Below, piece after piece: positions 1 to 64,000 of a stretch of DNA of 64,000 nt (positions are counted from its first letter, which is position 1; each line of letters starts with the position of its first letter). Origin of the DNA: Pristiophorus japonicus (Eukaryota); contig NC_091979.1 of assembly GCF_044704955.1 (NCBI RefSeq), forward strand, positions 316,386,001 to 316,450,000. Direction: 5' to 3'. The notes below the pieces were generated by a model that saw only the letters and a list, made by a program, of their open reading frames with translations, was not told the DNA's origin and did not search any database. A program made the translations under genes and the position numbers.

Positions 1-101
1 CCCTTTGCTTTATAGTTCAGGTTGCTTTAGTTTGGATATATGAAAGTGCTGGAAATCACTATTTTACATTAGTAGATCCCTTCTAGATTCCCATGGAACA
101 C

Positions 102-112
102 AAAGTGAAACT
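102..112 (+). promoter_or_regulatory. Possible intronic IRF element AAAGTGAAACT (also at 23314 and 46727)
   Basis: Matches the IRF-E core AANTGAAA, ~360 bp inside intron 1; short motif that could be chance. Confidence 0.35.
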
Positions 113-470
113 TTCTTTCTTCAAACTCTGCATATGACCTGAGGGCACTTACAGAATGCGCCTTTCCACGACAGTATAATATTCAAGTTTAACTTTGTAC
201 TTTCAACAGAGCCCAGTCCAAAATAATTTAAATTGTTGTTTGAGTTATAATCCTATGAACAGGTCTGCCTTTTGCCTCATGTTTACTGACTATCACCAGT
301 CTTGGTCCAGCAGTGTTCCCTTATCTGTGTGTCTCACTGTGAGCCACTAATCCCAGCTCTCTGCATTTCAACTGCTTTGTAATGTAAGCTACTTTATTTC
401 TGAAAACTAGTTCCTTGATCGATAGTCTACATGTAAATTTAAATACAGAAGTTATTATAATGATCTTTAC

Positions 471-475
471 CTCAT
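471..475 (-). CDS. IFIT copy A, coding part of exon 1 (ATG AG); exon 2 lies left of the window
   Basis: Minus strand reads gcattATGAG|GTAAAG, the canonical IFIT first exon and donor, ~100 bp downstream of TATAAAT and ~165 bp downstream of an ISRE. Confidence 0.8.
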
Positions 476-574
476 AATGCTGATCGATGGACAATGTGTT
501 GAATTTTTTCGTCAGCTCCAACTGTCCTTCCAATGGTGAGTTGACCGAATGTTTGGAGTGTTGTTTTTCAGCTC

Positions 575-651
575 ATTTATACCGTTCAGTCATTAATCGC
601 TATGAATCATTTCCTGAAAGTGAATAGAAACTAAACCGAGAAATGGAAACT
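575..651 (-). promoter_or_regulatory. IFIT copy A promoter: TATA box (575-581), GAAA-repeat IRF sites (616-636), ISRE (639-651)
   Basis: Minus strand AGTTTCCATTTCT matches the ISRE consensus AGTTTCNNTTTC. Plus strand has GAAAGTGAATAGAAACTAAA. Minus strand has TATAAAT. Confidence 0.8.
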
Positions 652-799
652 CAGAAGCAACATTCCTGTTCAGGAAATTCTGGTGTCACACAGTAACATT
701 GTGTGCTGACACAGAACCCCATGGAGCCGATTATAAACATAGGCCGGTTCAGCAACTGAAAAAGACCACTTGGCCCAAAAGGTCGAACCTGTTTGATTC

Positions 800-3325
800 C
801 AGGATACATTTCAATACCGATCACCAATCACGTTACATGTAGCACTATGCAGAAAAAACAGTACATGGAACAGATGGGGATACATTTACATTTTTTTACA
901 AGTTACTAAAGAGTGCAGAGACTTTCATTATACATGGCACAACACAGGTGTTTTTCAGTACATGGTGCTCTATGTATACAAGCAGATTAACAAGTACAGC
1001 CCGAGGGGGGTCTGATTTCATACCCTGGGTTTACCATGGCGGAAGGGCCTTAAACTGTGCCTCTTCTCCATCATGTCTTTGCGGCAACTGCACCAATCTT
1101 TAGTGCGTCCCTCAGTACGTACTCCTGGATCTTGGATTGCACCAGTCTGTAACACTTGGCTGTGGACATCTCCTTGCTCTGGAAGACCAGCAAGTTTTGG
1201 GAAGACCAAAGTGCGTCTTTCACCGAGTTAATGGCTCTCCAGCAGCAGATGATGTCTGTCTCGGTGTGTGTCCCGGGGAACAGTCCGTAGAGCACAGAGT
1301 CCTGTGTTACGGAGCTGCTTGCGATGAACCTCGACAGCTACCACTGCATCTCCTTCCAGACCTGCCTTGCAAAGGGGCAATCCCGAAAGAGATGGATGTC
1401 AGTCTCGTCCGTACCACAGCCGACTCAGGGCTAGAGTGCCGTGTCTCTGAAACCCCGGCTGTGTATGAAGGACCTGACGGGTAGGGCCCATCTCACCGTC
1501 AACCAAGCTATGTCTTGGTGCTTGTATGAAAGCTCTGCCGATGAGACATTCTGCCAAACGAGTTCGACAGTCTGCTCGGGGAACCGTCCGACAGGATCCA
1601 TCATCTCCTTCTTTTGTAGGGCGTCCAGGACCTTGCGTGCTGACCACTGCTTTATGGCCTTGTGGTCAAAGGTGTTTTTCTTGAAAACCTTTCCACGAAG
1701 GACAGGTGCTGAGGCATGGTCCAACTGGTCGGAGCGTTCCGTGGCAGCCTGGCCAGACCCATCCTTCGCAACACCGGGGACAGATAGAATCTCAGCACGT
1801 ACTGACACTTGGTGTTTGCGTACGAAGGGTCAATGCACAGCTTAATGCAGCCGCACACAAAGGTGGCCTTCAGGATGAGGGCCACGTTTGGAACGTCCTT
1901 TCCCTCCTTGTCCAGAGATTTGTACATCATGTCTCTGCGGACACGGTCCATTTTCGATCTCCAGATGAAATGGAAGATGACTCGGGTGACTGCCACGGCA
2001 CAGGAGTGGGGTATGGGCCAGACCTGCACCACGTACAACACCGAGAGCACCTCACTCCTCGTGACCAGGTTCTTTCCTGCAATGGAAAGTGAGCACAACT
2101 TTCACCATCCCAGTTTATGTTTGGCTTTAGCGATACGCTCCTTCCAGTTTTTCACGCACGCCCCGTCCGCTCCGAACCATATTCCCAACACCTTCAGGTA
2201 ATCTGACTTCACGGTGAAGGGAATAAAGGATCGGTCAGACCAGCTTCCAAAGAACATGGCCTCGCTTTTGCTGCGACTGACCTTCGCCCCCGAGGCCAGT
2301 TCAAACTGGTCACAGAGTGTGAGCAATCTGCGGACTGACTGCGGATCCGAGCAAAAGATGGTGACGTCGTCCATGTACAGGGAGGTCTTGACCTGAACGC
2401 CTCCGCTGCCTGGGATTGTCACCCGCCTAATGCCCGCATTCTTCCTGATGGACTCGGCAATGGGCTCGATACAACACACAAACAAGACAGAGGAGAGGGG
2501 ACAGCCTTGCCTGACTCCAGACCTGATTGGAAAGCTTCCAGTTTCCCGCCCATTGATTAGAACTGTGCTACTGATGTCTGTGTAGAGCAGTTGGATCCAA
2601 TTGCGGATACCCTCCCCAAACCCCATTTGGAGAGCACGTCCATCACGTACGTGTGCGATATCCTGTCAAAGGCAAGCTGATTAAACAGGTGTCCACCCTC
2701 CTGTCCCGCACGTAGGCGATCGTATCCCTGAGTAGCGCGAGGCTATCAGAGATCTTCCTGCCGGATCACCAGCTCCCGAGCAGACTTGACCCTGTTTGCG
2801 ATGACCTTTGACAGGATCTTGTCGACCACATTGAGCAGCGAAATGGCCGCCAGTTTTTGATTTCCTCCCTCTCCCACTTCTGCTTGTAGATGAGGGTGAT
2901 GATGCCTTTCCTCATCGATTCTGACATGCTGCCGGCCAGAAGCATACCCCCGTACACTTCCAGCAGGCCTGGGCCTATCCAGTCCCACAGAGCCGAATAC
3001 AACTAGACCGGTAAACCGTCGCTTCCGGGAGTTTTACTCATCATGAGGGACGGGACGGCCTTTGGCAGCTCGTCCAGAGTTAGTGGGTGATCGAGACTCT
3101 CCCGCTCGCTGTGGTCTAAGACCTCTGAGATAGACGACAGGAAAGACTGCGAGGCCGCGCGGTCTGTGGGCTTGACGTTGTACAGCCCGGCAGAGAAGGA
3201 TTTGCTGATCCTCAGCATGTCAGGCTGCGAAGACGTCGCTGGTGATCACAGAGCTCCCGCTGTGTACCTTTTGGAAGAAGAAACGCGAACACGTCTCATC
3301 CTGCTCGACGGAGCGGACTCTGTGC
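800..3325 (-). mobile_element. Tx1/L1-clade LINE, 5'-truncated, degraded ORF2 (reverse transcriptase)
   Basis: Fragments KTPGSDGL, MRKGIITLIYKQK, GVRQGCPLS, LYMDDVT, FELASGAKV, LKVLGIWFG and C-terminal WRAINSVKDALW, with frameshifts and stops. Confidence 0.88.
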
Positions 3326-3788
3326 AAAAACACTTAAGAAGCTTGACACCATCCAGGACAAAGCAGCCTGCTTCATTGGCAGCCCTTCCATCACCTTAAA
3401 CATTCACTCCCTCCACCACTAGCTCACCGTGGCTGCAGTTTGTACCATCTACAAGATGCACTGCAGCAACTCGCCAAGGCTTCTTTGGCAGCACCTCCCA
3501 AACACGCGCCCCCAACCATCTAGAAGGACAAGGGCAGCAGGTACATGGGAACACCATCACCTCCAAGTTACACGCCATCCTGACTTGGAAATATATCGCC
3601 GTTCCTTCATCATTGCTGGGTCAAAATCCTGGAACTCACGCCCTAACCACTGTGGGAGCACCTTCATCATAGGGTCTGCGGCGGTTCACGATGGCGGCTC
3701 ACAATAACTTGCTCAAAGGCAAGTAGTGATGGGCAATAAATGCTGGCCTTGCCATCAATGACCACATCCCATGAACGAATAAAAAAAT
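3326..3788 (+). mobile_element. 3' end of a CR1/L2-group LINE
   Basis: KKLDTIQDKAA-like ORF2 end, KSWNS motif, and terminal atgaacgaataaaaaaa tail. Confidence 0.6.
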
Positions 3789-3887
3789 ATATATATGCCC
3801 TGACAAGGATACAAACCAAAGGCACCAGACAAATCCTCGACTCTTCACATTAACTCCTGTCATTTACCGCCCAGTCTATGCCTGAAT

Positions 3888-6105
3888 TCATTGAACCATA
3901 GAATGGTTACAGCACGGAAGAAGACCATTCAGCCCATCGAGCCTGTGGCGACTCTCAGGTAGTCCCACTCCCCTGTCCTTTCCCTGTAGCCCGGCAATTT
4001 GTTTTTCCTTCAGATACTTATCCAATTCCCTTTTGAAAGATAAGATTGAGTCTGCCTCCACCATCCTTTCAGGCAGTGCATTCAGAACCCAACCACTCGC
4101 TGCGTACAAACATTTTTTCTTGCATCACCTTTGGTTCTTTTGCCAATCACATTGAATCTGATTCCTCTGGTTCTCGACTCTTCTGCCTATGGGAACAGTT
4201 TCTCTCTCTCTACTTTGTCCAGACCCCTCATTATTTTGAACACCTCTATCAAAGCTCCATCTCCATCTTCTCTGCTCCAAGGAGAAAGCCCCAGCTTCTC
4301 CAGTCGACCAACATAACTGAAGTTCCTCATTCCTGGAATCATTCTTGTTAATTTTTTCTGCAGCTTCTCTAAGGCCTTCACATCCTTCGTAAAATGTGGT
4401 GCCCAAAATTGGACACAATGCCCCAGTTAGGGCCACACCAGTGCTTTATACACGTTCATCATAATTTACACACTTTTGTACTCTCTACCTTTATTTATGA
4501 AGCCCAGTATCCTGTAAGCCTTTGTTACTGCTTTCTCATCCTGCCCTGCCACCTTCAACAATTTGTGCACACATACCCGCTATTCATTCACATTGTTTCG
4601 GATTGTACCATTTAGTTTATACGTCCTTTCCTCATTTTTGCGACCAAAATGTATCACTTCACATTTTTCTGCATTAAATTTCATCTGCATCGTGTCCGCC
4701 CATTTCACCAGCCCGTCTATGACTTGCTGAAATCGATCACTCTCCTGCTCACTGTTCACTATACTTCCAAATTTTGTGTCGTCTGCAAATTTTGAAATTG
4801 TGCCCTGTGCATCCATGTCCACGTCATTATTATATATCAAGAAAAGCAGTGGTCGCAGAAGTGATCCCCGGGGAACAGCACTGTGTACCTTCCTCCAGTC
4901 CTAAAAACAACCGTTAACCACTAATCTCTGAGGGCCAAATTGCCCATTTTTATAGCTCCATTCGTGCTAATGGACGCTAATGGGACGCAACGAGGTTATC
5001 GCCCGGGGGAAGAGGACGATAGTGCCCCCGTGGAAATTGCCCCGGAGGTTTTGGGGGTGTTGTACCGTTAACGGCGCGGCCCACGATTTGTGCCCCGGGC
5101 TGGCGCATTCACGACGATGATACCATCGGCGTGCACACGGACCCGTCACCACCCCGCGCTGACCCCTTTGCGCCCGGCGGAGGAAAATACTCAGCGGGCG
5201 GCGAGGATGGCGTCGGCCGATATCACCGCCAGCTTCACGAGTCGCGAACCCGCGGACATCCACCGCCGACACTACACCCGAATGGGGAGGCCGTTTGCGC
5301 CGTGGGCCGCTTTATTTTTCTGTTACCCGACTCCCTGTCAGCCCGACAATGGTGGTCCTCGCCTCGACAGAACCGCAATCCTGCAGCCCGCCGCTCTGTT
5401 ATGAGAGCCGCACTGTTGGCCCAGTCGAGGGTGTCCCTGTTGGCCCAGTGGCAGCCACCAACGGGACTGCAGAGCACACAGCAGCCCTCCCCTTTAATTG
5501 AACCTGAGGGACATTCTGCCACATCAGTGCTAACGGAGCAGACACGAGACGCTGATGCTGCCAGCAGGGTGCTGGGCTCCAAAGTCAGGGCCATCCTACT
5601 GCCCCGGGAGCGCCCCTCCATGGACACGAACAATCTCCAATGGCGCTCCACCTCTGTTGAGGGGCGGAAGGGCCAAATTCCACACCCCGGGTGGGACTCC
5701 CGAGCCGGGCACAAGGAGTCCCAGCCCCAGAAGTTTACCGCCCCCAATCAGGACGAGTGGCAATTTTATGGAATCTGTTTCCTGTCCCTTCGCGAATTTT
5801 GTAACCATGCTGCCACTGCCCCTTTTATTCCATGGGCTTCAACGTTCCTGGCAAGTCTATTTTGTGCCAGTTTGTTGAACGCCTTTTGGAAATCGCATTA
5901 CCCTCATCAACGCTCTCTGTCACCTCATCAAAAAACTTAATCAAGTTGATTAAACACTATTTGCCTTTAACAAATCCATGCTGGCTATCTTTAATTAATC
6001 CACACTTATCCAAGTGACTGTCCATTTTGTCCCTGATCACTGTTTCTCAAAGCTTCCCCACTACCGGGGTTAAACTCACTGCCTGTAATTGCTGGGTTTA
6101 TCATT
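3888..6105 (-). mobile_element. CR1 LINE ORF2 fragment, interrupted at ~4931-5772
   Basis: ISKFADDTK, KCEVIHFGRKN, LIEVFKIMRG, NALPERMVEA motifs. Confidence 0.88.
4931..5772. mobile_element. GC/CpG-rich insertion in CR1, probable non-autonomous DNA transposon (Harbinger-like)
   Basis: CR1 sequence ...atctctg resumes as tctgtttcctgtc after the insert; ends share an imperfect inverted aaattgcc / ggcaattt. Confidence 0.45.
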
Positions 6106-6141
6106 TACCAATATGGACCATGACCTCTGGCTGTTCACCCT

Positions 6142-7209
6142 TGTAGGCTCCGTTCCTCCCCCATCACCCCCCAACGGTAAAAATTGGACTATTAAATATA
6201 AAAACTCAGAACTGCATTACAGCCCACAAAAAGAGTTGGGCAGCAAAGGGTTAATTCTAACATTGCAGCAAAACCATGAGACACCATCAGAGACAATGAT
6301 GCAGGCTAACTGCCATTTCATCTAATCAACACAGACAATAGCACCAGAAGAGAGACATTCACACCTTCAATGGTTTCTGTCTGAAAAGATACAGGAACAT
6401 TCACATATTCATTTACCTTCAGGGGTTACATTGTTAAAGAGGCGTACCTTAGACCATGGTCCCAGAAAGGCTGGTATCAGTGCAGGCCGAGACTGGGCCC
6501 TGAACCATTTGAATAAGAATGCGACTGGAAACCAACAATGAAGTCACCTTGGGAAGGTTATATTGTCAGAAAGGACTTCACACTACAGACAGGCGGTGGC
6601 CAGAGTAATCATGGACAATGACCCGAAATGAGGGACAATTAGCCACCAAGAATTCCCTGCGAGAGACATTCACACATTTGATGCTGCCATTGTCTTCACA
6701 GGAGGGAAAGGAAATCTGTTTTGAGGTTGCAAGTTGGTCTTTGGTATAAAGAAGAGCCATTTCCGAGGGGAAAGCCAGTACAGGAACAGTATCGAAACAG
6801 CAACAGACAGCAGTGTGTCTTCGGGACTCAAGCTGCAACTAAGATCTGGGCCTACAGTCAACCTCAGCAGACAGCCGGGGAATTGGTGATTGTACGTTTC
6901 CAGTCAAATCATAGAAGGGTTTTGTGATTTAATCTGGGTAAGTTTACAGGTAACAGTCAAACCGCGGACGGGTTTCACCATGTCATATTGTGCTGATGCA
7001 AATGACCCTTTCATAGGGGTTTGTATTTTGGGGTTAATCCGTCCAATAAAAATCGTAGGGATTTGTACTGGGCAGTAATTGTGTGTATGTTCAATACATG
7101 AACAAATCTTCCTTGATCCAAAACCCTGAGCCGTGTGTATTTTGTTCTTTATAAATCCTGAAGTCAAAGAACTGTGTATAATGGGGAACTAGGTTTAGAA
7201 ATACTTACA
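6142..7209 (+). mobile_element. Solo LTR (1068 bp) with 4-bp TSD CCCT
   Basis: Ends TGTAGG...CTTACA, CCCT on both sides (6138-6141, 7210-7213), internal TATAAA (~6745) and AATAAA (~7046); splits a CR1 ORF1 sequence. Confidence 0.8.
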
Positions 7210-7795
7210 CCCTCCCCTCTCAGAATGTTCTGCAGTCGCTCAGAGACATCCTTAACCCTGACTACAGGGAGGCAACACTTTATCCTGGAGTCCCGCCTGC
7301 AGCCGCAGAAATGCCTCTCTGCTCCTGTAACGATCGAATCCTCTACTACTATTACTCTCCCTCTCTCCTTTCTCCCCCCTGTACAGCTGAGCCACCCGTG
7401 GTGCTGTGTACTTTGCTCTGGAACCCAGAGGAGCCATCGCCCTCACCAGTACTCAGAACAGAACCCAGATTGGAAAGCGAGATGCACACAGGAGACTCCT
7501 GCACTACATGCCTGGTCCTCCTCTTCTGTCTGGCAGTCACCCATTTCCTCCCTGGCTGCTCACTCCAAGGGTGCTGAGTGACCATCTCCTGAAACATGCT
7601 ATTCCCGAAGTTCTCAGCCTAACTGATGCACCGCAGTGATGCCCGTTGCTACTCAAGCTCCAAAACCCGGAGCTCGAGCTCCTCCAGCTGACAACACTTC
7701 CTACACATGTGTTTGTCCAGGACACGGGAAGTGTCCTGGAGTTCCCACATGGCAGAGTGTGCATACCACGGGACTGAGCTGCCCTGTCATGCCTC
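7210..7795 (-). mobile_element. CR1 LINE ORF1-region fragment (continues at 6110-6141)
   Basis: Similar to the CR1 ORF1 segment at 21210-21360 (ggaccatgac...gacatccttaaccctg). Confidence 0.7.
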
Positions 7796-7799
7796 TATT

Positions 7800-10700
7800 G
7801 AGAAAATAGGAGCAATAGTAGGCCATTCGGCCCTTCCAGCCTGCACCACCATTCAATATGATCATGGCTGATCCTCTATCTCAACACCATATTCTCGCTT
7901 TCTCCCCATGCCCCTTGATGCCTTTTGTGTCAAGTGAAGAAATTTCTCCACATCTCAGTCCGAAATTTCCTACCCTGTATCCTGAGACTGTGACCTCTTG
8001 TTCCAGACTTCCCAGCCACCGGAAAGATCCTCCCCGCATCCAGTCTGCCCAACCCCATCAGAATTTTATACGTTTCAATGAAGACAGGCCGAGTTGACCC
8101 AATCTCTCCTCATACGACAGTCCTGCCATCCCAGGAATCAGTCTGGTGAACCTTCGTTGCACTCCCTCTATGGCAAGTATATCCTTTTTTAGGTAAGGAG
8201 ACCAAAACTGCACACAATATTCCAGGTATGGTCTCACCAAGGCTCTGTATAACTGTAGTAAGACATCCTTGCTCCTGTACTCAAATCCTCTTGCAATGAA
8301 GGTCAACATACCATCTTCCTTACTAACTGCTGACTGCACCGGCATGTTTGCTTTCAATGACTGATGTACAAGGACACCCAGGTCCCTTTATACATCGACA
8401 TTTCCCAAGCTATCACCATTTAAATAATACTTTGTCTTTATGTTTTTTCTGCCAAAGTGGATAACTTCACATTTATCCACATTATTCTGCATCTGCCATG
8501 TGTTTGCCCACTCACTCAACCTATCTAAATCACCTTGCAGAGTCTTTGCATCCTCCTCACAACTCACAATCCCACCTAGTTTTGTGTCGTCAGCAAACTT
8601 GGAAATTTTGCAATAGGTTCCCTCATCCAAATCATTTATATATATATTTTGAATAGCTGAGGCCTAAGCACGGATCCTTGTGGTACCCCACTAGTCACTG
8701 CCCGCCACCCCGAAAAAGACCCGTTTATTCCTACTCTCTGTTTCCTGTCAGTTAACCAATTTTCAATCCCATGCCAGTATATTGCCCCCAATCCTATGTG
8801 CTTTAATTTTGCACACTAATGTCTTATGTGGGATTTTATCAAAGGCCTTCTGAAAATCCAAATACACTACATCCACTGGTTCTCCCTTATCTATTCTATC
8901 AGTTACATCCTCAAAAAACTCCAGTAGGTTTGTCAAACTCAATTTTCCTTTCACAAATCCATGTTGATTTTGTCTAATCCTTTTGATAGTTTCTAAGTGT
9001 GCCGTTATCACATCCTACATAATAGACTCTAGCATTTTTTCCTACTATTGTTGTTAGGCTAACCGGTGTGTAGTTCCCTGTTTTCTCTCTCCCTCCTTTT
9101 TTAAATAGTGGGGTTACATTTGCCACCCTCCAATCTGCAGGAACTGTTCCATAATCTATAGAATTTTGGAAAATGACAACCAATGCAGCCACTATTTCCA
9201 TGGCTACCTCTTTTAGTTCTCTGGGATGCAGATTATCAGGCCCTGGGGATTTATCGGCCCTCAGTCCTATTAGTTTCTCCAGCACTATTTTCTTACCAAT
9301 AATCATTTCCTTTAATTCCTCTTGTTCACTAGACCCTTGGTTCCCTAGCATTTCTGGGATGTTATTTGTGTCCTCTTGCGTGAAGACAGAACCAAAGTAT
9401 TTATTTAATTGTTCTGCCATTTCCTTGTTCCCCATTATAAATTCTCCCGTTTCTGACTGTAAAGGATCTAAATTTGTCTTCACTAATCTTTTTCTTTTTA
9501 CATACTTGTAGAAACTTTTGCAGTCGGTTTTTATGTTCCTTGCAAATTTACTCTCATACCTCTATTTTTCCTTTCTTAATCAATCTCTTGGTCCTTTTTT
9601 GCTGAATTCTGAACTGCTCCCAATAATCCTCAGGCTTCCTACTTTTTCTGGCAACTTTGTATGACCCCTCTGTGGATAGAAACATAGAAACATAGAAAGT
9701 AGGTGCAGGAGAAGGCCATTCGGCCCTTCGAGCCTGCACCACCATTCAATATGATCATGGTTGATCATGCAACTTCAGTACCCCATTCCTGCTTTCTCTC
9801 CATACCCCTTGATCCCTTTAGCCATAAGGGCCACATCTCACTCTCTTTTGAATATATCCAACAAACTGGCCTCAACAACTTTCTGTGGTAGAGAATTCCA
9901 CAGGTTCACCACTCTCTGGGTGAAGAGGTTTCTCCTCATCTCGGTCCTAAATGGCTTACTCCTTATCCTTAGACTGTGACCCCTGGTTCTGGACTTCCTC
10001 AACATCGGGAACATTCTTCCTGCATCTAACCTGTCCAATCCCGTCAGAATTTTATATGTTTCTATGAGATCCCCCCTCATACTTCTAAATTCCAGTGAAT
10101 ATAAGCCTAGTCGATATAGTCTTTCTTCATATGTCAGTTCTGCCATCCCGGGAATCAATCTGGTGAACCTTCGCTGCACTCCCTCAATAGCAAGAATGTC
10201 CTTCCTCAGATTAGGAGACCAAAACTGCACACAATACTCAAGGTGTGGTCTCACCAAGGCCCTGTACAACTGTAGTAAGACCTCCCTGCTCCTATACTCA
10301 AATGCCATTTGCCTTCTTTACTGCCTGCTGTACCTGCATGCCGACCTTCAATGACTGATGTACCATGATACCCAGGTCTCGTTGCACCTACCCTTTTCTT
10401 AATCTGTCACCATTCAGATAATAATCTGCCTTCCTGTTTTTGCAACCAAAGTGGATAACCTCACTTATTACTATCCTTAATTTCTTTTGCTAGCCATGGT
10501 CGAGCCACTTTTCCTTTTGTGTTTTTGCACCAGAAAGGAATGTATAACTGTTGCATTTCATGCATTCGTTCCTTAAATGTTAGCCATTGCCTATCCACCA
10601 TCATGCCTTTTAATGAATCTTCCCAATCTATCATAGCCAATTCTTTCCTCATACCTTCATAGTTTCCTGTGTTTAGATTTAGGATACTAGTTTTGGATTG

Positions 10701-20100: not shown

Positions 20101-20109
20101 TTTAAATTT

Positions 20110-43526: not shown

Positions 43527-43535
43527 TTTTAATTT

Positions 43536-52732: not shown

Positions 52733-52768
52733 TACCAATATGGACCATGACCTCTGGCTGTTCACCCT

Positions 52769-53759: not shown

Positions 53760-56700
53760 CCCTCCCCTCTCAGAATGTTCTGCAGTCGCTCAGAGACATC
53801 CTTAACTCTGGCTACAGGGAGGCAACACTTTATCCTGGAGTCCCGCCTGCAGCCGCAGAAATGCCTCTCTGCTCCTGTAATGATCGAATCCTCTACTACT
53901 ATTACTCTCCCTCTCTCCTTTCTCCCCCCTGTACAGCTGAGCCACCCGTGGTGCTGTGTACTTTGCTCTGGAACCCAGAGGAGCCATCGCCCTCACCAGT
54001 ACTCAGAACAGAACCCAGATTGGAAAGCGAGATGCACACAGGAGAGTCCTGCACTACATGCCTGGTCCTCCTCTTCTGTCTGGCAGTCACCCATTTCCTC
54101 CCTGGCTGCTCACTCCTAGGGTGCTGAGTGACCATCTCCTGAAACATGCTATTCCCGAAGTTCTCAGCCTAACGGATGCACCGCAGTGATGCCCGTTGCT
54201 ACTCAAGCTCCAAAACCCGGAGCTCGAGCTCCTCCAGCTGACGACACTTCCTACACATGTGTTTGTCCAGGACACGGGAAGTATCCTGGAGTTCCCACAT
54301 GGCAGAGTGTGCATACCACGGGACTGAGCTGCCCTGTCATGCCTCTATTGAGAAAATAGGAGCAATAGTAGGCCATTCGGCCCTTCCAGCCTGCACCACC
54401 ATTCAATATGATCATGGCTGATCCTCTATCTCAACACCATATTCTCGCTTTCTCCCCATGCCCCTTGATGCCTTTTGTGTCAAGTGAAGAAATTTCTCCA
54501 CATCTCAGTCCGAAATTTCCTACCCTGTATCCTGAGACTGTGACCTCTTGTTCCAGACTTCCCAGTCACCGGAAAGATCCTCCCCGCATCCAGTCTGCCC
54601 AACCCCATCAGAATTTTATACGTTTCAATGAAGACAGGCCGAGTTGACCCAATCTCTCCTCATACGACAGTCCTGCCATCCCAGGAATCAGTCTGGTGAA
54701 CCTTCGCTGCACTCTCTCTATGGCAAGTATATCCTTTCTTAGGTAAGGAGCCCAAAACTGCACACAATATTCCAGGTATGGTCTCACCAAGGCTCTGTAT
54801 AACTGTAGTAAGACATCCTTGCTCCTGTACTCAAATCCTCTTGCAATGAAGGCCAACATACCATTTCCCTTACTAACTGCTGACTGCACCGGCATGTTTG
54901 CTTTCAATGACTGGTGTACAAGGACACCCAGGTCTCTTTGTACATCGACATTTCCCAAGCTATCACCATTTAAATAATACTTTGTCTTTATGTTTTTTCT
55001 ACCAAAGTGGATAACTTCACATTTATCCACGTTATTCTGCATCTGCCATGTGTTTGCCCACTCACTCAACCTATCTAAATCACCTTGCAGAGTCTTTGCA
55101 TCCTCCTCACAACTCACAATCCCACCTAGTTTTGTGTCGTCAGCAAACTTGGAAATATTACATTAGGTTCCCTCATCCAAATCATTTATATATATATTTT
55201 GAATAGCTGAGGCCTAAGCACGGATCCTTATGGTACCCCACTAGTCACTGCCCGCCACCCCGAAAAAGACCCGTTTATTCCTACTCTCTGTTTCCTGTCA
55301 GTTAACCAATTTTCAATCCCATGCCAGTATATTGCCCCCAATCCTATGTGCTTTAATTTTGCACACTAATGTCTTATGTGGGATTTTACCAAAGGCCTTC
55401 TGAAAATCCAAATACACTACATCCACTGGTTCTCCCTTATCTATTCTATCAGTTACATCCTCAAAAATCTCCAGTAAGTTTGTCAAACACAATTTTCCTT
55501 TCACAAATCCATGTTGATTTTGTCTAATCCTTTTGATAGTTTCTAAGTGTGCCGTTATCACATCCTACATAATAGACTCTAGCATTTTTCCTGCTACTGA
55601 TGTTAGGCTAACCGGTGTGTAGTTCCCTGTTTTCTCGCTCCCTCCTTTTTTAAATAATGGGGTTACATTTGCCACCCTCCAATCTGCAGGAACTGTTCCA
55701 TAATCTATAGAATTTTGGAAAATGACAACCAATGCAGCCACTATTTCCATGGCTACCTCTTTTAGTTCTCTGGGATGCAGATTATCAGGCCCTGGGGATT
55801 TATCGGCCCTCAGTCCTAGTAGTTTCTCCAGCACTATTTTCTTACCAATAATCATTTCCTTTAATTCCTCTTGCTCACTCGACCCTTGGTTCCCTCGCAT
55901 TTCTGGGATGTTATTTGTGTCGTCTTGCGTGAAGACAGAACCAAAGTATTTATTTAATTGTTCTGCCATTTCCTTGTTCCCCATTATAAATTCTCCTGTT
56001 TCTGACTGTAAAGGATCTACATTTGTCTTCACTAATCTTTTTCTTTTTACATACTTGTAGAAACTTTTGCAATCGGTTTTTATGTTCCTTGCAAGTTTAC
56101 TCTCGTACTCTATTTTTCCTTTCTTAATCAATCTCTTGGTCCTTTTTTGCTGAATTCTGAACTGCTCCCAATAATCCTCAGGCTTCCTACTTTTTCTGGC
56201 AACTTTGTATGACCCCTCTGTGAATAGAAACATAGAAACATAGAAAGTAGGTGCAGGAGTAGGCCATTCGGCCCTTCGAGCCTGCACCACCATTCAATAT
56301 GATCATGGTTGATCATGCAACTTCAGTACCCCATTCCTGCTTTCTCTCCATACCTCTTGATCCCTTTAGCCATAAGGGCCACATCTAACTCTCTTTTGAA
56401 TATATCTAACAAACTGGCCTCAACAACTTTCTGTGGTAGAGAATTCCACAGGTTCACCACTCTCTGGGTGAAGAGGTTTCTCCTCATCTCGGTCCTAAAT
56501 GGCTTAATCCTTATCCTTAGACTGTGATCCCTGGTTCTGGACTTCCTCAACATTGGGAACATTCTTCCTGCATCTAACCTGTTCAATCCCGTCAGAATTT
56601 TATATGTTTCTATGAGATCCCCCCTCATACTTCTAAATTCCAGTGAATATAAGCCTAGTCGATATAGTCTTTCTTCATATGTCAGTTCTGCCATCCCGGG

Positions 56701-57450
56701 AATCAAGCTGGTGAACCTTCGCTGCACTCCCTCAATAGCAAGAATGTCCTTCCTCAGATTAGGAGACCAAAACTGCACACAATACTCAAGGTGTGGTTTC
56801 ACCAAGGCCCTGTACAACTGTAGTAAGACCTCCCTGCTCCTATACTCAAATCCCCTTGCTATGAAGGCCAGCATGCCATTTGCCTTCTTTACTGCCTGCT
56901 GTACCTGCATGCCGACCTTCAGTGACTGATGTACCATGATACCCAGGTCTCGTTGCACCTACCCTTTTCTTAATCTGTCACCATTCAGATAATATTCTGC
57001 CTTCCTGTTTTTGCAACCAAAGTGGATAACCTCACTTATTACTATCCTTAATTTCTTTTGCTAGCCATGGTCGGGCCACTTTTCCTTTTGTGTTTTTGCA
57101 CCAGAAAGGAATGTATAACTGTTGCATTTCATGCATTCGTTCCTTAAATGTTAGCTATTGCCTATCCACCATCATGCCTTTTAATGAATCTTCTCAATCT
57201 ATCATAGCCAATTCATTCCTCATACCTTCGTAGTTTCCTGTGTTTAGATTTAGGATACTTGTTTTGGATTGGACTACTTCACTTTCTATCTTAATAAAGA
57301 ATTCTACATGTTATGGTCACTCTTCCCTGAAGGACCGCGCACAACAAGACTATTAATTAATGTCATCTCATTGCAGAATATTCAATCTAGGATAGCCTGT
57401 TCCCTCATAGACTGCTCAACATACTGGTCTAAAAAACCATCTTGTACAGA
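53760..57450 (-). mobile_element. CR1 ORF1 fragment plus nested CR1 ORF2 elements (unit 3)
   Basis: Copy of 7210-10880. Confidence 0.9.
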
Positions 57451-57677
57451 CATATTTAATAGACTATGAACTAACCTGGGAGAAATAAACTTTAAATTTA
57501 AAAAAAACACTCACCAGCTACTCACCTTTGTGCCGATGTCATTTTGGCTTTTTTACTCTGACGTCACTATTTCAAATTCAGCCTGTGTTGAGTTGCTCAG
57601 CACTCGCTCTCGCTCTCGCTCTGGTCCGCCTCAGCTCCAATCATTTACCAGCTGTCCTGTGATGTCACTGCTGGATC

Positions 57678-57908
57678 TTTCTCCTCTCTGCTCCTCCAAT
57701 GCTGCTGCTGATTCGGTCTACACTGGTCTCTCCTCTGCTGTTTAAATCTTGCCCCTCCTCCAATGCTGCTGCTGATTAGGTCTACACTGGTCTCTCCTCT
57801 GCTGATCAAATCTTGCCTCTCCTCCAATGCTGCTGCTGATTAGGTCTACACTGGTCTCTCCTCTGCTGTTTAAATCTTGCCACCTCCTCCAATGCTGCTG
57901 CTGATTAG
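57678..57908. repeat. 64-bp minisatellite (unit 3)
   Basis: Copy of 11120-11351. Confidence 0.88.
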
Positions 57909-58043
57909 AATTTAACTCACAAAACTAACATTAACCAGTTCAGAATGTATTAGCATTTACACTATCAACCTCCAATGAGGATCTGCATGAGCTATTGAGT
58001 GAATGAATTAATTCTTGACAATTATGAAAGAGGAAGTCAGACA

Positions 58044-58153
58044 TAGACATAGAAACATAGAAAATAGGTGCAGGAGTAGGCCATTCGGCCCTTCTAGCCT
58101 GCACCGCCATTCAATGAGTTCATGGCTGAACATGCAACTTCAGTACCCCATTC
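58044..58153 (-). mobile_element. Young 110-bp CR1 3'-end insertion with TSD CAGACA (unit 3)
   Basis: cagaca at 58038-58043 and 58154-58159. Confidence 0.88.
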
Positions 58154-58239
58154 CAGACAATAAAGTCTACATAATAGGATCCCAATTAACATTCATTTAG
58201 GAGGCTATCACCTGAGACAGGGTGCGGGAGGAGTATAGT

Positions 58240-59610
58240 CAGCATGTTCTGGGGTCTTTGTGGGCCCGAGCAGAGGCGGGTTAGTTGGCTGCACAGTTCA
58301 GAGGATGGATGGCTGCTTCTGCTGCAATGGAAATGGTGACACTGGCCATCAGATGCTGCATCATGGTTGGGTCCACAAGTGTGCGAACAGAGTTTGCCAC
58401 CACTTCCATGCCGGAAAGGATGGGCTCCAAACTCTGCTCAAAGCCCTGTGCCAAGCTGGTGAAGACTCCTCCATGCTCCGTGACATTGACTGCAGGCTTT
58501 CTGGCAGGCCTGCCAATGCACCAAGCCTTCATTGTGCAAACCCATCAGCGTTCCTCTGTAGGCTGCCCCATCGAACTCCGTATCTGAGTCCTCGGCAATG
58601 AAACCTGTCTGTGCCCTCGCCCTCCGGTGAGCTGGCACCTGTGCTATCCTTGCCACCTGCCCTGGCTGCAACCCACACGTGCCCGGTGTCTCACCACGTG
58701 CAGATCCCGCCTCTAATCTATCCTCTAACATAGCAGTGTCAGTGTCTGAGCCGGTGGCTGTGAGTGTGAAATCAAGTGACGGTCACTCTCTTCTTGCTGT
58801 TCCTCCACTGTCTGGGCAGATTGCAACTCTTGTGTATCTGAAAGGAAAAAGGCACAAGAATAAGTTGTGGTGCAAGGAAGTGAGGGGAAAGTAAGAGGTA
58901 CGTGCTTACACCATCTGCAGCTTGTAAATCAGCTTGTGGGATGAGAGGAAAATGGGATGGTTTTAGCCCTGTCGCTGGCCACTTGTTCAACTTTGGGCAT
59001 CTCAATAAAGGCCAGCACCATCTCCTCCACGGGTGTGAGGACATGTAGACGCGCCTGTCCCCTCCAGTTAGCACCTGCTGCATTTGGTTGTATGCCACCT
59101 TGTCCAGTGAGAGAGAGGGAAGCGTGTCAGTGACTTTCGTGCAAACTGTTTGGCTGATGTGGCTGTCATGGTTGAATAGCTGGCTGAGTGTGCAAGCTGT
59201 GAGATGTCGGAGTTCAGTGTGTGAGGGCGAAGTGAAGCTATGGATGTGAGGTATGAGGCCTGTTGGTTGTTGTAGAGATTGTTGGTAGGTGAGTGATGGG
59301 GATGTGGTGAATTGAGCAGTGGGTGTGGCTCGTGTTGCAGTTGGGAAGACATGGCATTTGAAGATGCATTCACTGACCTTGACCACTCATGTGAGGTCAT
59401 TGAACTTCTTGCGGCACTGTATCCAGGTCCTCGGGGCTTGACTCCGGGCACTGACTGCCACGACTATCTGCTTCCACTTCCTTTTGACCGTGTGTCTGGA
59501 GGGCCTCCGGCCCCAATGTGGATACAGAACATCTCGCCTCCTTTCCACCTCCTCCAATAAGACCTCCAGTTCTCCATCCGACAAACTTGGTGCCCGCTAG
59601 CTCCCCTGTT
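58240..59610 (-). pseudogene. Harbinger Myb/SANT-like gene remnant (unit 3)
   Basis: ORF 59387-59584 ends ...RTWIQCRKKFNDLT then stop. Confidence 0.72.
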
Positions 59611-59738
59611 GTGTGGTTAGCACTAGTTGGATACACAGATCATTCAAATGAGCAGGCAGCACAAAGTTGACTTGCTGCCTGCATTGCAATTAACAGCCAC
59701 AGGTTAATCGCACTTCATGATCCCTGCATCCATCTTTT

Positions 59739-61833
59739 ATGAATGGGAAATCGTGTTTGACAAATCTGTTTTGAGTTTTTTGAAGATGTAACTTGCAGGA
59801 TGGATAAGGGGAAAACCAGTGGGTGTAGTGTATTTGGATTTTCAAAAAACATTCGATAAGGTGTCACACAAGAGGTTATTACACAAAATTACGTCTCATG
59901 GTATTAGGGGTAATATATTAGCATGGATTGAAACTGGTTAATGGACAGAAAACAGAGAGTAGGAATAAACAAGAATGTTTAAGTTTGGCAGGCTGTGACT
60001 AGAGGGGTACCTCAAGGTTCAGTGCTTGGGCCTCAGCTATTTACAATCTATATTAATGACTTCGATGAAGGGACGGTGTAAAACGTATCCAACTTTGCTG
60101 ATGATACAAAGTTAGGTGGGAAAGCAAGCTGAGAGGAGCACACAAAGAGGCTGCAGAGAGATAAAGACCCCTATTTTCTACTTGCTGGATTTTTGGTGCC
60201 CACACATGTTAATGTATGATTTTTTTCTGTGCGTTTGCGGCAGAGAAAAAAATTGGGACTTGCGTCAAAGAAATATTTGAATTTGGTGCAACGCTCTCCG
60301 AAGTTAGTTTGGGGCGGAGCTACAAGTCTACGGTAAAAACTCTCTGGGCATGCGCGAAAAGCTGAAGTTGCCAGGACAACCAGAGACGCTGATGCAAGCT
60401 GAAACACACTCCCCTGAAAGGACTGCTCCCCACCGGCGGGACCCGGTGCAATCTCCGGCCGAATGGCCCTCCGGCTCCTGAACTTCAACTCGCAGGGTGA
60501 CCGGGGGGGCCATTCAGTCCGGGATTGTAGTGGGTCCAGCCGGTGATGAACAGTCCTTTCAGGGGATTGTAGTGGGTCCAGCCGGTGAGGAACAGTCCTT
60601 TCGGGGGGATTGTAGTGGGTCCAGCCGGTGGGGAACAGTCCTTTCGGGGAGATTGTAGTGGGTCCAGCCGGTGAGGAACAGTCCTTTCGGGGGGATTGTA
60701 GTGGGTCCAGCCGGTGGGGAACAGTCCTTTCGGGGAGATTGTAGTGGGTCCAGCCGGTGAGGAACAGTCCTTTCGGAGGATTGTACTGGGTCCAGCCGGT
60801 GAGGAACAGTCCTTTCGGAGGGATTGTAGTGGGTCCAGCCGGTGAGGAACAGTCCTTTCGGGGGGATTGTAGTGGGTCCAGCCGGTGAGGAACAGTCCTT
60901 TCGGGGGGATTGTAGTGGGTCCAGCCGGTGAGGAACAGTCCTTTCGGGGAGATTGTAGTGGGTCCAGCCGGTGAGGAACAGTCCTTTCGGGGGGATTGTA
61001 CTGGGTCCAGCCGGTGAGGAACAGTCCTTTCGGGGGGATTGTAGTGGGTCCAGCCGGTGGGGAACAGTCCTTTCAGGGGATTGTACTGGGTCCAGCCGGT
61101 GAGGAACAGTCCTTTCAGGGGATTGTAGTGGGTCCAGCCGGTGGGGAACAGTCCTTTCAGGGGATTGTAGTGGGTCCAGCCGGTGGGGGAAGTGTCCTTT
61201 CGGGGGGATTGTAGTGGGTCCAGCTGGTGAGGAACAGTCCTTTCGGGGGATTGTAGTGGGTCCAGCCGGTGGGGAACAGTCCTTTCGGGGGATTGTACTG
61301 GGTCCAGCCAGTGGGGAACAGTCCTTTCGGCCGGGGATTGTAGCGGGAGGAGCAGTCCTTTTGACCGGAAATGTTCTTCCCTTGCTCCAAAAAGAGTTCC
61401 CCGTGAAAAAAAGATAATTTGTTTTAACACAATTGAAAAATTGAAAGATATAAAATTCTTACGGGGCTTGACAGGGTTAATGCTGGGGGGTTAATGCTGG
61501 GTAAATGTTTTCCCTGTCTGGGGAATTTAGAACACAGGGTCACAGTCACAGAATAAGGGATAGGCAATTTAGGACTGAGATGAGGAGAAATGTCTTCACT
61601 CAAAGGGGTGTGAACCTTGGCAATTCTCTACCCCAGAGAGCTGTGGATGCTCAGTCGTTGAGTATATTCAAGACAGAGGCCGATAAAATTTTGGGAACAA
61701 AGGGAATTAAAGGATATGGGGATAGTGCGGGAAGGTGGAATTGAGGTACATCAGTCATGGTCTCATTGAATGGCGGAGCAGGCTCGAAGGGCCAAATGGC
61801 CTCCTCCTGCTCTGATTTTGAATGTTCTTATGT
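59739..61833 (+). mobile_element. Plus-strand CR1 fragments with GC-rich insert (unit 3; keeps ~167 bp absent from units 1 and 2)
   Basis: Extra gataatttg...gactgag at ~61413-61579. Confidence 0.8.
60521..61361. repeat. Expanded ~43-bp minisatellite, ~19 units plus a partial
   Basis: Counted by eye from recurrences of ggattgta(g/c)tgggtccagc. Confidence 0.95.
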
Positions 61834-63588
61834 CTTCGGGGCTGTCCAATTTACCCCCCCCACCTCCGCCCTCCCACACACAGGTGTCTGTGCAGCCCCT
61901 CCAATACCTTAAAACTAGTTTCCAGCATTGCACAGACCTGGGACAATACCTCCACAGAAAAGCTGAACCCTTCCAGGGGCTGCTTTTCCAATAGGTCTAA
62001 ATATGATGTGAGGCGTCTGCAGCCTCTCCCAATGTTAGATTCTTCCATTGTCCCATTCCTCTGGATCTTCCCAACCATTCCTCCCTCACCTTTCTTTAAT
62101 AGCACTGTGGCTACAGCTAGCAGTGTAAGGGCCATGTTTCACTCCACAATCAACAGCTGTTTAGTTTACTGCCTGTGTTAAAGGCTGGTCTGAATGTTCC
62201 TTACAGAGCTGGTACAGTTCACCATCACAAAGTGTGGATTATGAGTGACACTTACTGTCAGCATTAGCACAGATCAATGACACAAATAAAATTGTAGTTA
62301 TAGTATCTTTTTATTGGTTATTTTAACACTCAATCTCTGATATTACAGCAAATTAACATTTCTCATTGGGAAATCTGTATCTGCAACTATAAAGCTTTAT
62401 TATTTTTCATCATTTTAACTTATTTTTATATCCCTTAGCCGTGGTGGAAATTAACCGCTTCCATTGAAGAGGCAGGATATCAGGGAGCTGTGGGCGGCTC
62501 GTTACAGGGAGAGAGAGAACATAATCTTTCTTCAGGCGTGATACCGACCATCCCGTTTTAACAATGTCAGTGACTGAGGCTCCTTGTCAGCAGTGGGATG
62601 AATAAAATTAAGCCCACATTATTCTGAAGGAGCACTGGCACTCATCCTGTCCCCCACCAAAAAATAATTCATCTCTTATTCGGGACTCTGATGCTGTCCC
62701 GCCAGGTTTTATTGAGCAAAGGGCCCGCGGTTGTTGCTTCACCCGACAGGCTGTTGTTCCCCATCCATTGAAGAGGCTGCAAATCAGGGAGCTGCGGGCG
62801 GCTCGTTACACAGAGAGAGAGAGAAATTAATCTTTCTTCAGGCATGATACCGGCCATCCCGTGTAGCAGGGAAATTGCACAATCGGGTGAAATCGGCCGA
62901 ACCAGTGTAAAAGATCGCAGAAACTCGAGCATAAGTTCTGTCAAGCTTCAACCGAGATTTCCGGGATCTTTAGCCCTGGTTTAAAAAGCTTTCTGTCCGA
63001 AGCTGGCGCCGCCCACAAAACTGGCCACACCCCCAGATAGAAATAACGAGGATGGTGAGTTTCCGCCCATTGCGTCCATTTGCAACCTTTCGAGGAGCGT
63101 TTTCAAATTGAGCTGGTTTTCTGAGGTGCCCAGGCACTAGTAGGCACAATTTAATAGGTTTTACATCTTAAAAATATTTAAATTATTAAAAGTCTGACTA
63201 GTGTACAACAATAAAACTTATAACTGGTTCAGTATAGATTTTAAAGCCATTTACATCACCTGAAATCAGGTAAAGCACAGCTGAAAGACTGACTAAAAAT
63301 ATTTAATTTTGCAGGTTACATCCATTTTCAGCTGTATCAATAAAGCTGCACCAATTGCCACTCTTAAATATATCAATGAATATTTTTAATGCAAAAAATA
63401 ACTGATTATATTCTGTTACACTGACTGACTGCACTGGTTCTTGGAAGATTTTACATTTGTAATTAAGCAAATGCATTTAGTGGAAACTTAAACTGTAAGC
63501 TAACCAGCGTAACTTCAAGTGCAATTTGCACCCAAAGCAGAAACTCTACCCGCTGTGTTTAGTTTTAGCTGGGAGAGTCGTCGTTGAT

Positions 63589-64000
63589 TTAGATAGAAAG
63601 ACGTAATTCACAAAGAGCACTTAGATATTCTTCATTGTCACAATCAAACTCCAAGGCCTTTTCAAAGCACTCAATAGCTTCACACTTCTCCCCATCCAGC
63701 TGGTGCAGTAACCCAAGAACACCAAAGGCCTTGCTGTCTCTGGGATTCCTGTCAATTTGTTTTGTTGCAATCTTTCTCAAGTTTTCGCGACACAATTGCC
63801 ATTCCACTGTGTCACGTTGGATTTTAAGTCCTTCCAGAAAATAGCTGATGGCATTTGATTCAGATCTTTTGTGATGCAGTTCATATAACCCAAACTGCGC
63901 ATATACTGCCTGCTTATTATCAGGATGAAAATCATCTAATTTCAGTAGATTACTGTAAATCTCCTCTACTTTGAGATATTCTCCATTTAATGAACAGATT
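63589..64000 (-). CDS. IFIT5: IFIT copy D, 3' part of exon 2 (continues beyond window)
   Basis: Reads ...EYLKVEEIY...GLYELHHKRS...ALCELRLSI stop. Symbol means IFIT5-like. Confidence 0.9.
   Translation of the reverse strand, partial: ICSLNGEYLKVEEIYSNLLKLDDFHPDNKQAVYAQFGLYELHHKRSESNAISYFLEGLKIQRDTVEWQLCRENLRKIATKQIDRNPRDSKAFGVLGLLHQLDGEKCEAIECFEKALEFDCDNEEYLSALCELRLSI

Follow-up and report, generated by a model that had tools for sequence, protein, structure and literature searches.

A mosaic tandem array of 23-kb units carrying whole IFIT genes in the sawshark Pristiophorus japonicus

Introduction

How did one IFIT gene come to stand in near-identical head-to-tail copies in a sawshark, and have these copies since diverged independently or kept exchanging sequence? 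We analysed a 64,000-nucleotide stretch of Pristiophorus japonicus DNA (the window), which a preliminary description had presented as a very young array of at least four copies of one IFIT gene in a probable shark, and as birth-and-death evolution caught early. IFIT specificity for RNA caps has been worked out almost only in mammals. The window proteins are already in public annotation, and arrays of this sort are a known phenomenon; in a search of mostly open literature, no paper came up on an IFIT array from a sawshark or another elasmobranch, and the tandem-cluster lists that supplement the Squalomix preprint may name IFIT.

Results

The window comprises 2.75 head-to-tail units of 23.2–23.4 kb each, in agreement with the copies of about 23.3 kb that had been described. 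Self-BLAST returned alignments of 7–19 kb with 98.2–98.7% identity at offsets of 23.2–23.3 kb and 46.6 kb, and the inter-unit substitutions amounted to 249/23,172, 168/15,950 and 271/15,715. Four minus-strand IFIT genes (Z, A, B and C) are touched by the window, so that 'at least four copies' holds as a count of genes, but only two of the 2.75 units, and only genes A and B, are complete; the window edges truncate Z, which keeps its promoter and exon 1, and C, which keeps the last 411 nt of its CDS. The units, with lengths taken from anchor to anchor, are:

652..23863, no strand, repeat unit 1 (23,212 bp), holding gene A; the cut at the ISRE is arbitrary with respect to the true duplication junction
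23864..47276, no strand, repeat unit 2 (23,413 bp), holding gene B
47277..64000, no strand, repeat unit 3, partial (16.7 kb), stopping within gene C

The window holds only the interior of the array; LINE ends on the same strand, 88–90% alike, are candidates for the duplication junction.

The genes and their promoters lie as follows, the remainder of gene Z being left of the window:

1..652, minus strand, gene Z, 5' part (ISRE/IRF-site cluster 616-652, TATA 575-581, exon 1 coding bases 471-475, intron start 1-470)
16058..17510, minus strand, gene A exon 2 CDS; the spliced product of 485 aa is the same as record P0125
17511..23682, minus strand, gene A intron (6,172 bp, GT-AG, LINE remnants inside)
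23683..23687, minus strand, gene A exon 1 coding part (ATG and two bases, then the GT donor)
23828..23864, minus strand, gene A promoter (exact ISRE consensus 23852-23863, TATA 23787-23793)
39485..40937, minus strand, gene B exon 2 CDS (485 aa, of which residues 34-485 are the same as record P0130)
40938..47095, minus strand, gene B intron (6,158 bp; 15 substitutions and two indels relative to the gene A intron)
47096..47100, minus strand, gene B exon 1 coding part
47241..47277, minus strand, gene B promoter ISRE cluster (TATA 47200-47206)
63589..64000, minus strand, gene C, 3' end (411 nt of CDS, open; V360 distinguishes C from A and B)

Each 23-kb unit bears a whole transcription unit with ISRE, TATA, exon 1, intron and exon 2, and the coding sequences are intact, as had been reported: with GT-AG splicing A and B both yield open 485-aa frames, which differ by seven amino acids. 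The two-exon structure is predicted from splice signals, and the product of copy A is identical to a record (P0125) from a UniRef cluster, the named members of which are Pristiophorus japonicus; this supports the shark origin that had been proposed. The three visible promoters (Z, A and B) are identical across 233 bp through the ATG, each with a single exact ISRE consensus ~60 bp upstream of its TATA box. The gene A ISRE is followed by repeats, spotted by eye, that we take to be IRF-site-like. As the count of ISREs with one mismatch (15 versus 6.7) is inflated by the repeat structure, the evidence for the ISRE is its position, inside the ~200 bp next to the TATA box that is usual for IFIT genes.

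The assignment to IFIT stood up as well. A phmmer comparison matched human IFIT5 over the full length (E 4e-115), and the protein has TPR Pfam matches and is of the all-helical TPR type, ~480 aa long. An AlphaFold2 model (pLDDT 88.1, pTM 0.84) adopts the predicted clamp fold of IFIT1 and IFIT5, its best Foldseek match being human IFIT5 with ppp-RNA (4hor_A, TM 0.88, E 5e-28). Counterparts of IFIT1 R38, W147, L150, K151, R187, R255, K259 and R262 are present, as counted by hand on alignments; the available extracts of PMC3950709 and PMC13197388 describe the functional roles of these residues. The basic channel of IFIT5 (K150, R186, R253, K257, R260, Q288) corresponds to K149, R185, R254, K258, R261 and Q289 in A and B, while in the pocket Q41 is replaced by S and T37 by R. 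As for the residues that contact the cap in IFIT1, R37 and W145 are present; however, Y218 is replaced by V, L46 by A, and F45 has no counterpart, and cap binding, judged from these non-conserved positions, is therefore uncertain.

Besides the genes, the units contain retrotransposon remnants and minisatellites:

11481..11486, no strand, empty target site of the 116-bp LINE insertion, unit 1
13816..14045, no strand, 42-bp minisatellite, unit 1 (5.3 copies)
25317..25876, minus strand, broken non-LTR retrotransposon reverse transcriptase, upstream of the promoter
31013..33698, minus strand, two LINE remnants with RVT_1 matches, common to all units
34702..34823, minus strand, LINE 3' end (116 bp, 5'-truncated), unit 2, flanked by 6-bp direct repeats (target-site duplication)
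37184..37393, no strand, 42-bp minisatellite, unit 2 (5.0 copies)
58038..58159, minus strand, the same 116-bp LINE insertion in unit 3, 116/116 bp identical to that of unit 2
60521..61347, no strand, 42/43-bp minisatellite, unit 3, expanded (19.3 copies)

The paired LINE remnants are presumably of CR1/L2 type. The broken reverse transcriptase lies upstream of the promoter in all three units, with extra stops in unit 2 only, and the dead elements do recur between units, as previously noted; at least 29% of the unit consists of internal repeats. Further host genes were rejected on a Pfam scan of 78 of 94 stop-to-stop frames of at least 75 aa in unit 2 (a set without the IFIT frame, those of the minisatellite and several that overlap LINE or IFIT frames), in which seven frames matched, every one retrotransposon-type: five RVT_1, one endonuclease and one GDSL esterase, the last of which we take to be a CR1 ORF1 domain. 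Across the window there were no Rfam matches and no tRNAs, and tblastn found just the three known exon-2 matches and no additional or decayed IFIT copy.

Identity between the units is high overall, but divergence is not uniform, as one tract is far closer to its counterpart in the next unit (about 38,075-52,580):

14651..29165, no strand, low-divergence tract, 48/14,500 differences

Divergence is 0.33% within this 14.5-kb tract and 1.4–1.5% elsewhere (354/24,600 differences outside; LLR 65, permutation maximum 12.3, n=200), and three-way site patterns fall into 128 runs, compared to a minimum of 160 among 10,000 shuffles. Adjoining units are mosaics, made up of tracts whose ancestry differs. 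The low-divergence tract takes in gene A or B along with 5 kb upstream of it; that it covers the gene is not significant (~1 in 4 by chance). The LINE insertion with its target-site duplication in two of the three units indicates that amplification proceeded in several steps. The array is 'very young' in sequence terms only: the LINE inserted after the first duplication, and 1.4% divergence corresponds to about 7–45 My on borrowed shark rates. At the protein level, the four-gamete test was failed by 4/15 informative site pairs among the nine near-identical proteins and by 56/253 site pairs among all 14, although these are amino-acid sites, where recurrent mutation can mimic exchange; 24 of 39 minor states reappear in other sawshark subfamilies.

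At least 35 distinct sawshark IFIT proteins are public, of which nine are near-identical to the window genes and many differ by 1–2 residues; they are automatic gene models without coordinates, and some may be alleles on unplaced contigs. One model (P0121) appears to extend into a partial neighbouring copy and is possibly a dead gene. Consistent with the proposed amplification of one gene lineage, the orthologue of the window gene seems to occupy a single locus in seven other shark species. Three sawshark subfamilies show amplification, as does the same lineage in Heptranchias, and near-identical IFIT pairs are also found in six other elasmobranchs examined, so that young IFIT duplicates are not peculiar to the sawshark.

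The two parts of these proteins have different histories. Gene B is 92–96% identical to five cluster-2 proteins over residues 34–315 and 67–69% over residues 316–478 (p at most 4e-10), the boundary at residue 315 having been chosen, like the lineage group, after the first identity comparisons; versus the hornshark orthologue, the values are 84% and 81% (p=0.43). The best single change-points are scattered over 259–340 and the diverged block starts near 354: residues ~354–433 stay lineage-specific, while the N-terminal two-thirds are common to anciently diverged sawshark subfamilies. In the C-part tree, sawshark monophyly was rejected (p-AU 0.0002) and a cross-shark lineage was supported at 100/99, whereas the N-part tree gave a sawshark clade at 68/69 and the lineage-based alternative was not rejected (p-AU 0.33). 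All nine protein quartets, which share sequences, shift from species to lineage grouping (p 0.0009–0.04). Five relatives carry the window-type C-terminus behind an N-terminus whose pocket motif, in four of the five, is without the triphosphate-binding lysine. The position of IFIT5 K150 is K in only 35/164 cartilaginous-fish sequences, the others having S, T, R, N, G or I, and position 149 ranks within the top 30 of 445 positions by entropy. A hypervariable loop 149–153 as a whole was rejected, as positions 150–153 rank 219, 55, 59 and 53 of 445.

Discussion

Our results are, in our judgement, probably explained by a multi-step tandem amplification of one putatively interferon-inducible IFIT in the sawshark, which unequal crossing-over and gene conversion have maintained. 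An assembly artefact, in which haplotypes or reads of a single-copy locus were stacked in tandem, is very improbable. The 0.33% of the 14.5-kb tract is close to the allelic diversity of another shark (pi 0.002 in the accessible portion of PMC10587355), and one unit could be a false duplication; however, a haplotype join predicts allele-level identity over the full 23.3-kb unit, nine distinct near-identical proteins exist, and one 15.8-kb stretch is present in three distinct versions, 1.05–1.72% apart, so that the array is not merely two stacked alleles. Moreover, the inter-unit differences resemble germline mutation, given the excess of transitions (254, to 163 transversions), their CpG-type context (96/254, versus 20% of sites) and the few one-base indels in homopolymers (6/19). 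The model of the preliminary description, one very recent burst after which copies diverged independently or were lost (classical birth-and-death), strikes us as distinctly unlikely. It would suit units that are 98–99% identical, an orthologue that looks single-locus in other sharks and a gene model such as P0121, yet it predicts even divergence and a star-like pattern where the window has tracts and switching affinities, the LINE inserted between duplications, and the borrowed clocks give ages of millions of years. In its strict form the single burst is already contradicted by the mosaic divergence, and birth-and-death 'caught early' gives way to exchange between copies and with older subfamilies, with no dead copy in the window.

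The driving force is a separate matter. We regard it as somewhat unlikely that the expansion was neutral, non-allelic recombination in repeat-rich shark DNA having carried the IFIT along in copies that were tolerated rather than selected. The repeat content of the unit, the copying of the entire 23 kb, dead elements included, and coding differences that fit neutrality (pN/pS of A versus B 1.1–1.6, not significant; binomial p 0.42–0.63) are in keeping with it, as is the growth of tandem clusters with elasmobranch genome size reported in the available part of 10.1101/2025.06.08.657570; but both complete copies, the partial copy and all three promoters are intact, amplification recurs across subfamilies and in Heptranchias, and, as in mammals, the C-terminal block has withstood homogenisation, a hint of selection. 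That positive selection is already driving the neighbours A and B apart in function is unlikely, although inside the low-divergence tract differences are denser in the CDS than in non-coding sequence (10/1,453 versus 38/13,047, p=0.025), with eight non-synonymous changes versus ~3.2 expected (p 0.013–0.02). There are only 10 changes, two of them in one codon; 6/7 amino-acid differences reappear in other paralogues, a pattern expected of short conversion tracts, and none of the seven is at a mapped 5'-end contact residue. With pN/pS null and the weaker background test alone nominally significant, we rejected positive selection between A and B.

Under multi-step amplification with continuing exchange, interferon or IRFs would switch on all copies jointly via their identical promoters, and additional copies would raise the dose. 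The protein would fold as an IFIT1/IFIT5-type clamp and, as its conserved basic residues suggest, bind the 5' end of single-stranded RNA, thereby blocking translation or sequestering viral RNA. Exchange with sister subfamilies would recombine 5'-end-pocket variants with the window C-terminus, which would widen the range of RNA ends recognised. More tentatively, and we hold this possible rather than probable, sawsharks and perhaps elasmobranchs generally have a recombination-driven IFIT repertoire: dozens of genes would stand in tandem and be induced together, and conversion would move alternative RNA-5'-end pockets onto C-terminal modules that predate the main shark lineages. If true, the mammalian IFIT1/IFIT1B arrangement would have been replayed independently and on a much larger scale, yielding a copy-number-variable receptor panel for different viral RNA ends. 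The locus offers natural chimeras, with a different 5'-end pocket on a common C-terminus and the reverse, which can test whether a 'homogenised front, divergent back' is a general constraint of the IFIT fold, and what takes the place of the triphosphate-binding lysine. A further suggestion from the locus is that sharks, which evolve slowly, may use copy number and recombination, not point mutation, to diversify their innate antiviral genes.

The array is unusually large for a familiar kind of immune-gene array. Near-identical tandem arrays under unequal crossover are found in the amylase, beta-defensin and interferon-alpha clusters, which likewise consist of head-to-tail units measuring tens of kb, with identity that is mosaic and a copy number that is likely variable; in the sawshark, copy number may vary between individuals. 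Lineage-specific expansions of IFITs (elephant shark 8, zebrafish 10, frog 11; extracts of PMC3688568) also arose by species-specific tandem duplication of ISRE-driven genes, but the sawshark has at least 35 distinct proteins and entire 23-kb units were copied. According to the same extracts, zebrafish IFITs with an ISRE are interferon-inducible, and those of PMC4065003 describe them as protective. The two exons, an exon 1 of ATG and two bases and an ISRE near the TATA box are shared with human IFIT5 and IFIT1 (PMC3688568, extracts). The window protein is 41–42% identical to IFIT5 (TM 0.88), with the same last residues at the C-terminus, and 39% identical to IFIT1 (TM 0.86), but by the tests made its gene is orthologous to neither. 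Its pocket is mixed, with IFIT1-like D33/R37 (E33/T37 in IFIT5), S41 for Q and V217 for IFIT1 Y218, its cap loop is one residue shorter, and the window copies are 98.6% identical rather than diverged paralogues. The closest parallel to the N/C split is mammalian IFIT1/IFIT1B, for which the consulted portion of Daugherty et al. (2016, PMC4887208) reports recurrent gene conversion: there too the N-terminal two-thirds are homogenised within species while the old lineage is preserved in the C-terminal third (cat, 96% versus 46%; sawshark, 92–96% versus 67–69%). In mammals this concerns one pair, with a breakpoint near codon 302–316 and a C-terminus shown to set specificity, whereas in the sawshark, as far as the aligned proteins indicate, it would involve many genes of several subfamilies, with change-points at 259–340, a diverged block at 354–433 that begins beyond the breakpoint of mammals, and a pocket lysine that varies.

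A tandem array of intact IFIT genes

The window holds a real tandem array of intact IFIT genes with identical promoters and mosaic ancestry. As the preliminary description had claimed, head-to-tail units fill it: self-BLAST shows direct repetition over the whole length, with alignments of 18.7, 11.5 and 7.2 kb (98.2-98.7% identity) shifted by 23.2-23.3 kb, and a second-order shift of 46.6 kb. It contains 2.75 units, with pairwise substitutions of 249/23,172, 168/15,950 and 271/15,715.

Repeat units and the repeats that they carry
652-23,863: unit 1, cut at promoter
23,864-47,276: unit 2, cut at promoter
47,277-64,000: unit 3, partial, cut at promoter
11135-11351, 34356-34572, 57691-57908: 64-bp tandem repeat, 3.4 copies, each unit
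13816-14045 (5.3 copies), 37184-37393 (5.0), 60521-61347 (19.3): 42-bp GC-rich minisatellite
34702-34823 (unit 2), 58038-58159 (unit 3): 116-bp LINE end flanked by a target-site duplication

The window reaches into four genes, all on the minus strand (Z, A, B and C, left to right): A and B are complete, Z is present as promoter and exon 1, and C as its final 411 coding bases. Exon 1 contributes an ATG and two bases to the coding sequence; the introns (6,172 and 6,158 bp) are GT-AG, and the spliced frames of A and B are open over 485 aa. In all three copies visible, 233 bp of promoter are identical, and the exact ISRE consensus has three matches in the whole window, each preceding a TATA box by ~60 bp. 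A one-mismatch ISRE ~360 bp inside intron 1 of every copy (101-112, 23313-23324 and 46726-46737, minus strand) is a possible candidate for an intronic enhancer. No further host gene emerged from the 78 frames scanned, the Pfam matches (7 frames) all being retrotransposon-type, and Rfam and tRNA scans of the window returned nothing.

Degraded minus-strand frames at ~34900-36130 and 37659-38033, with equivalents in the other units and no Pfam match, resemble, by eye, what is left of a PIF/Harbinger DNA transposon, with Myb-like and nuclease parts. An inverted copy of the minisatellite lies directly upstream of it (37070-37140), and the minisatellite may be part of a transposon end. The 3' flank of each gene carries a ~100-bp direct duplication, 305 bp apart (38350-38451 and 38654-38757). 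GC skew is strongly negative throughout, because the genes and nearly all LINE remnants lie on the minus strand.

Stacked alleles are contradicted as the origin of the units by a 15.8-kb stretch present in three differing versions, of which two alleles cannot be the source, by the germline spectrum of inter-unit differences (254 transitions, 163 transversions; 96/254 transitions in CpG-type context, vs 20% of sites), by the few one-base indels in homopolymers (only 6/19) and by unit-specific features: minisatellite copy number differs by unit and, beyond it, unit-specific indels reach 168 bp. An assembly error could have added or removed one unit of the real array, and is conceivable, one tract being as alike between units as alleles would be.

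The product and its predicted RNA-binding residues

The earlier assignments to IFIT and to a shark hold. The product matches human IFIT5 over its length (E 4e-115), and its predicted fold (pLDDT 88) resembles the IFIT5-ppp-RNA structure (TM 0.88). The top database match, at 98%, is an IFIT5-like protein of Pristiophorus japonicus in UniRef (other sharks <=83%). In its cluster one record equals copy A throughout and another equals copy B over residues 34-485, and through the named members of this cluster the window is attributed to that sawshark.

By hand count on alignments, A and B retain equivalents of the triphosphate-binding channel residues named for IFIT1 (R38, K151, R187, R255, K259, R262; PMC3950709, PMC13197388) and of W147 and L150, and lack Y218, F45 and L46. 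Among 164 cartilaginous-fish cores (distinct protein sequences, after one record was dropped), R37, W145, Y155, R185, R254, R261 and Q289 are conserved in 155-164, and the IFIT5-K150 position is lysine in 35. Judged from the residues that A and B retain, the window protein likely binds RNA 5' ends. In both copies, residue 191 corresponds in the alignment to human IFIT1 L193, a loop position at the exit of the RNA tunnel that is reported to evolve fast (PMC12543323); it is S in the window type and G in 5/14 cluster-1 proteins (the UniRef 90% cluster holding the window gene) and most relatives. Exon 2 of copy A carries Y96C, at a site nearly invariant among 70 relatives (one protein of cluster 2, another sawshark subfamily, has the same change), which may weaken this copy.

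A mosaic history

Compared with the following unit, positions 1-14,650 differ by 1.48%, 14,651-29,165 by 0.33% and those beyond by 1.38% (LLR 65; 200 permutations reached at most 12.3). Three-way site patterns are clustered (128 runs vs a minimum of 160 in 10,000 shuffles), and inter-unit affinities change along the unit. The truncated 116-bp LINE end, flanked by 6-bp direct repeats and 93% like an older LINE copy within the same unit, occurs without a single difference in units 2 and 3; unit 1 lacks it and has the empty site at 11481-11486. On the simplest reading it inserted after the first duplication and was spread by a later one; it is a ready PCR marker of unit type.

At rates borrowed from other sharks (1.6e-10 to 1.1e-9 per year, 4/6 species used; PMC9826928), 1.44% corresponds to 6.7-45 My and 0.29% to 1.4-9.1 My, and at the pedigree rate reported for another shark (PMC10587355) to about 10 and 2 million generations, dates that conversion distorts in both directions. 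As 0.3% is close to the diversity of 0.002 reported in that shark (PMC10587355), copies may have exchanged sequence very recently in an array that is itself older. A very young array, with birth-and-death evolution caught early, thus proved too simple a picture, given the mosaic divergence, the LINE inserted between duplications and borrowed dates of millions of years. In the mechanism we propose, unequal crossover would alter copy number and conversion would homogenise and reshuffle the copies, all of which would be induced by interferon and encode proteins that would bind viral RNA 5' ends.

Of the coding bases that separate A from B, 8 are non-synonymous and 2 synonymous (pN/pS 1.1-1.6, not significant), and within the low-divergence tract the CDS differs more than non-coding DNA (p=0.025). 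Since 6/7 of their amino-acid differences recur in other paralogues, shuffling accounts for this excess as well as selection does.

Related genes in sharks

Cluster 1 comprises at least 14 distinct cores, from the 15 of its 19 members listed: eight are <=5 residues apart, one is 8-11 away and five are 14-27 from those. With five more clusters, the sawshark has at least 35 distinct cores in 40 rows, a lower bound because the best 120 of 1,158 matches were listed, and one in which alleles may be counted, the proteins being automatic gene models without coordinates. Judged from isoform names, the window-gene lineage appears to be a single locus in Heterodontus, two Scyliorhinus, two Chiloscyllium, Hemiscyllium and Stegostoma; white shark has two cores, and Heptranchias at least 8 among 13 listed. 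In Heptranchias perlo (P0006, P0007 and cluster members) the same lineage is amplified separately, and each listed protein is placed on a 53.4-Mb contig. IFIT pairs 1-5 residues apart occur in 6/6 other species checked, and close pairs are far commoner in the sawshark than in these six (nearest neighbour <=2 residues in 10/14, 6/6 and 4/11 proteins of three clusters). A second very tight sawshark subfamily (records P0008 and P0148-P0152; 6 distinct proteins, 1-8 residues apart) is probably another young array. The gene model P0121 (753 aa), a complete pocket-variant IFIT that continues into the back portion of a window-type gene, suggests that the two types adjoin and that a partial copy exists.

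Probable module exchange between subfamilies

Copy B is 92-96% identical to five cluster-2 proteins over residues 34-315 and 67-69% over 316-478 (p <=4e-10), with the diverged block at residues 354-433 (~50%), vs 84% and 81% for the N- and C-parts of the hornshark orthologue; the cut at 315 was set post hoc, after the cluster comparison and the mammalian breakpoint. In the C-part tree (28 representative rows) the window cluster joins other sharks' orthologues (100/99) and sawshark monophyly is rejected (p-AU 0.0002); in the N-part tree sawshark genes group at only 68/69, and lineage grouping is not rejected (p-AU 0.33). All nine quartets, which are not independent, change from species to lineage pattern (p 0.0009-0.04). 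Five cluster-1 proteins combine a window-type C-terminus with N-terminal states of other subfamilies; in four of them the motif at 149-153 differs (NSPSQ in three; TSADQ, also in cluster 2, in one), so that these have no counterpart of the IFIT5 K150 lysine. Four-gamete failures (4/15 and 56/253) and minor states common to other clusters (24/39) point the same way.

Lineage-specific IFIT expansion has been published (PMC3688568, PMC4065003), as has IFIT gene conversion in mammals (PMC4887208). Our literature search found no description of a sawshark or elasmobranch IFIT array, and the Squalomix preprint, which deals with tandem clusters in elasmobranchs, mentions neither interferon, tetratricopeptide nor sawshark in its main text. 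With its N-part alike and its C-part diverged, the sawshark pattern resembles the mammalian IFIT1/IFIT1B conversion, for which specificity is reported to be set by the C-terminus (PMC4887208).
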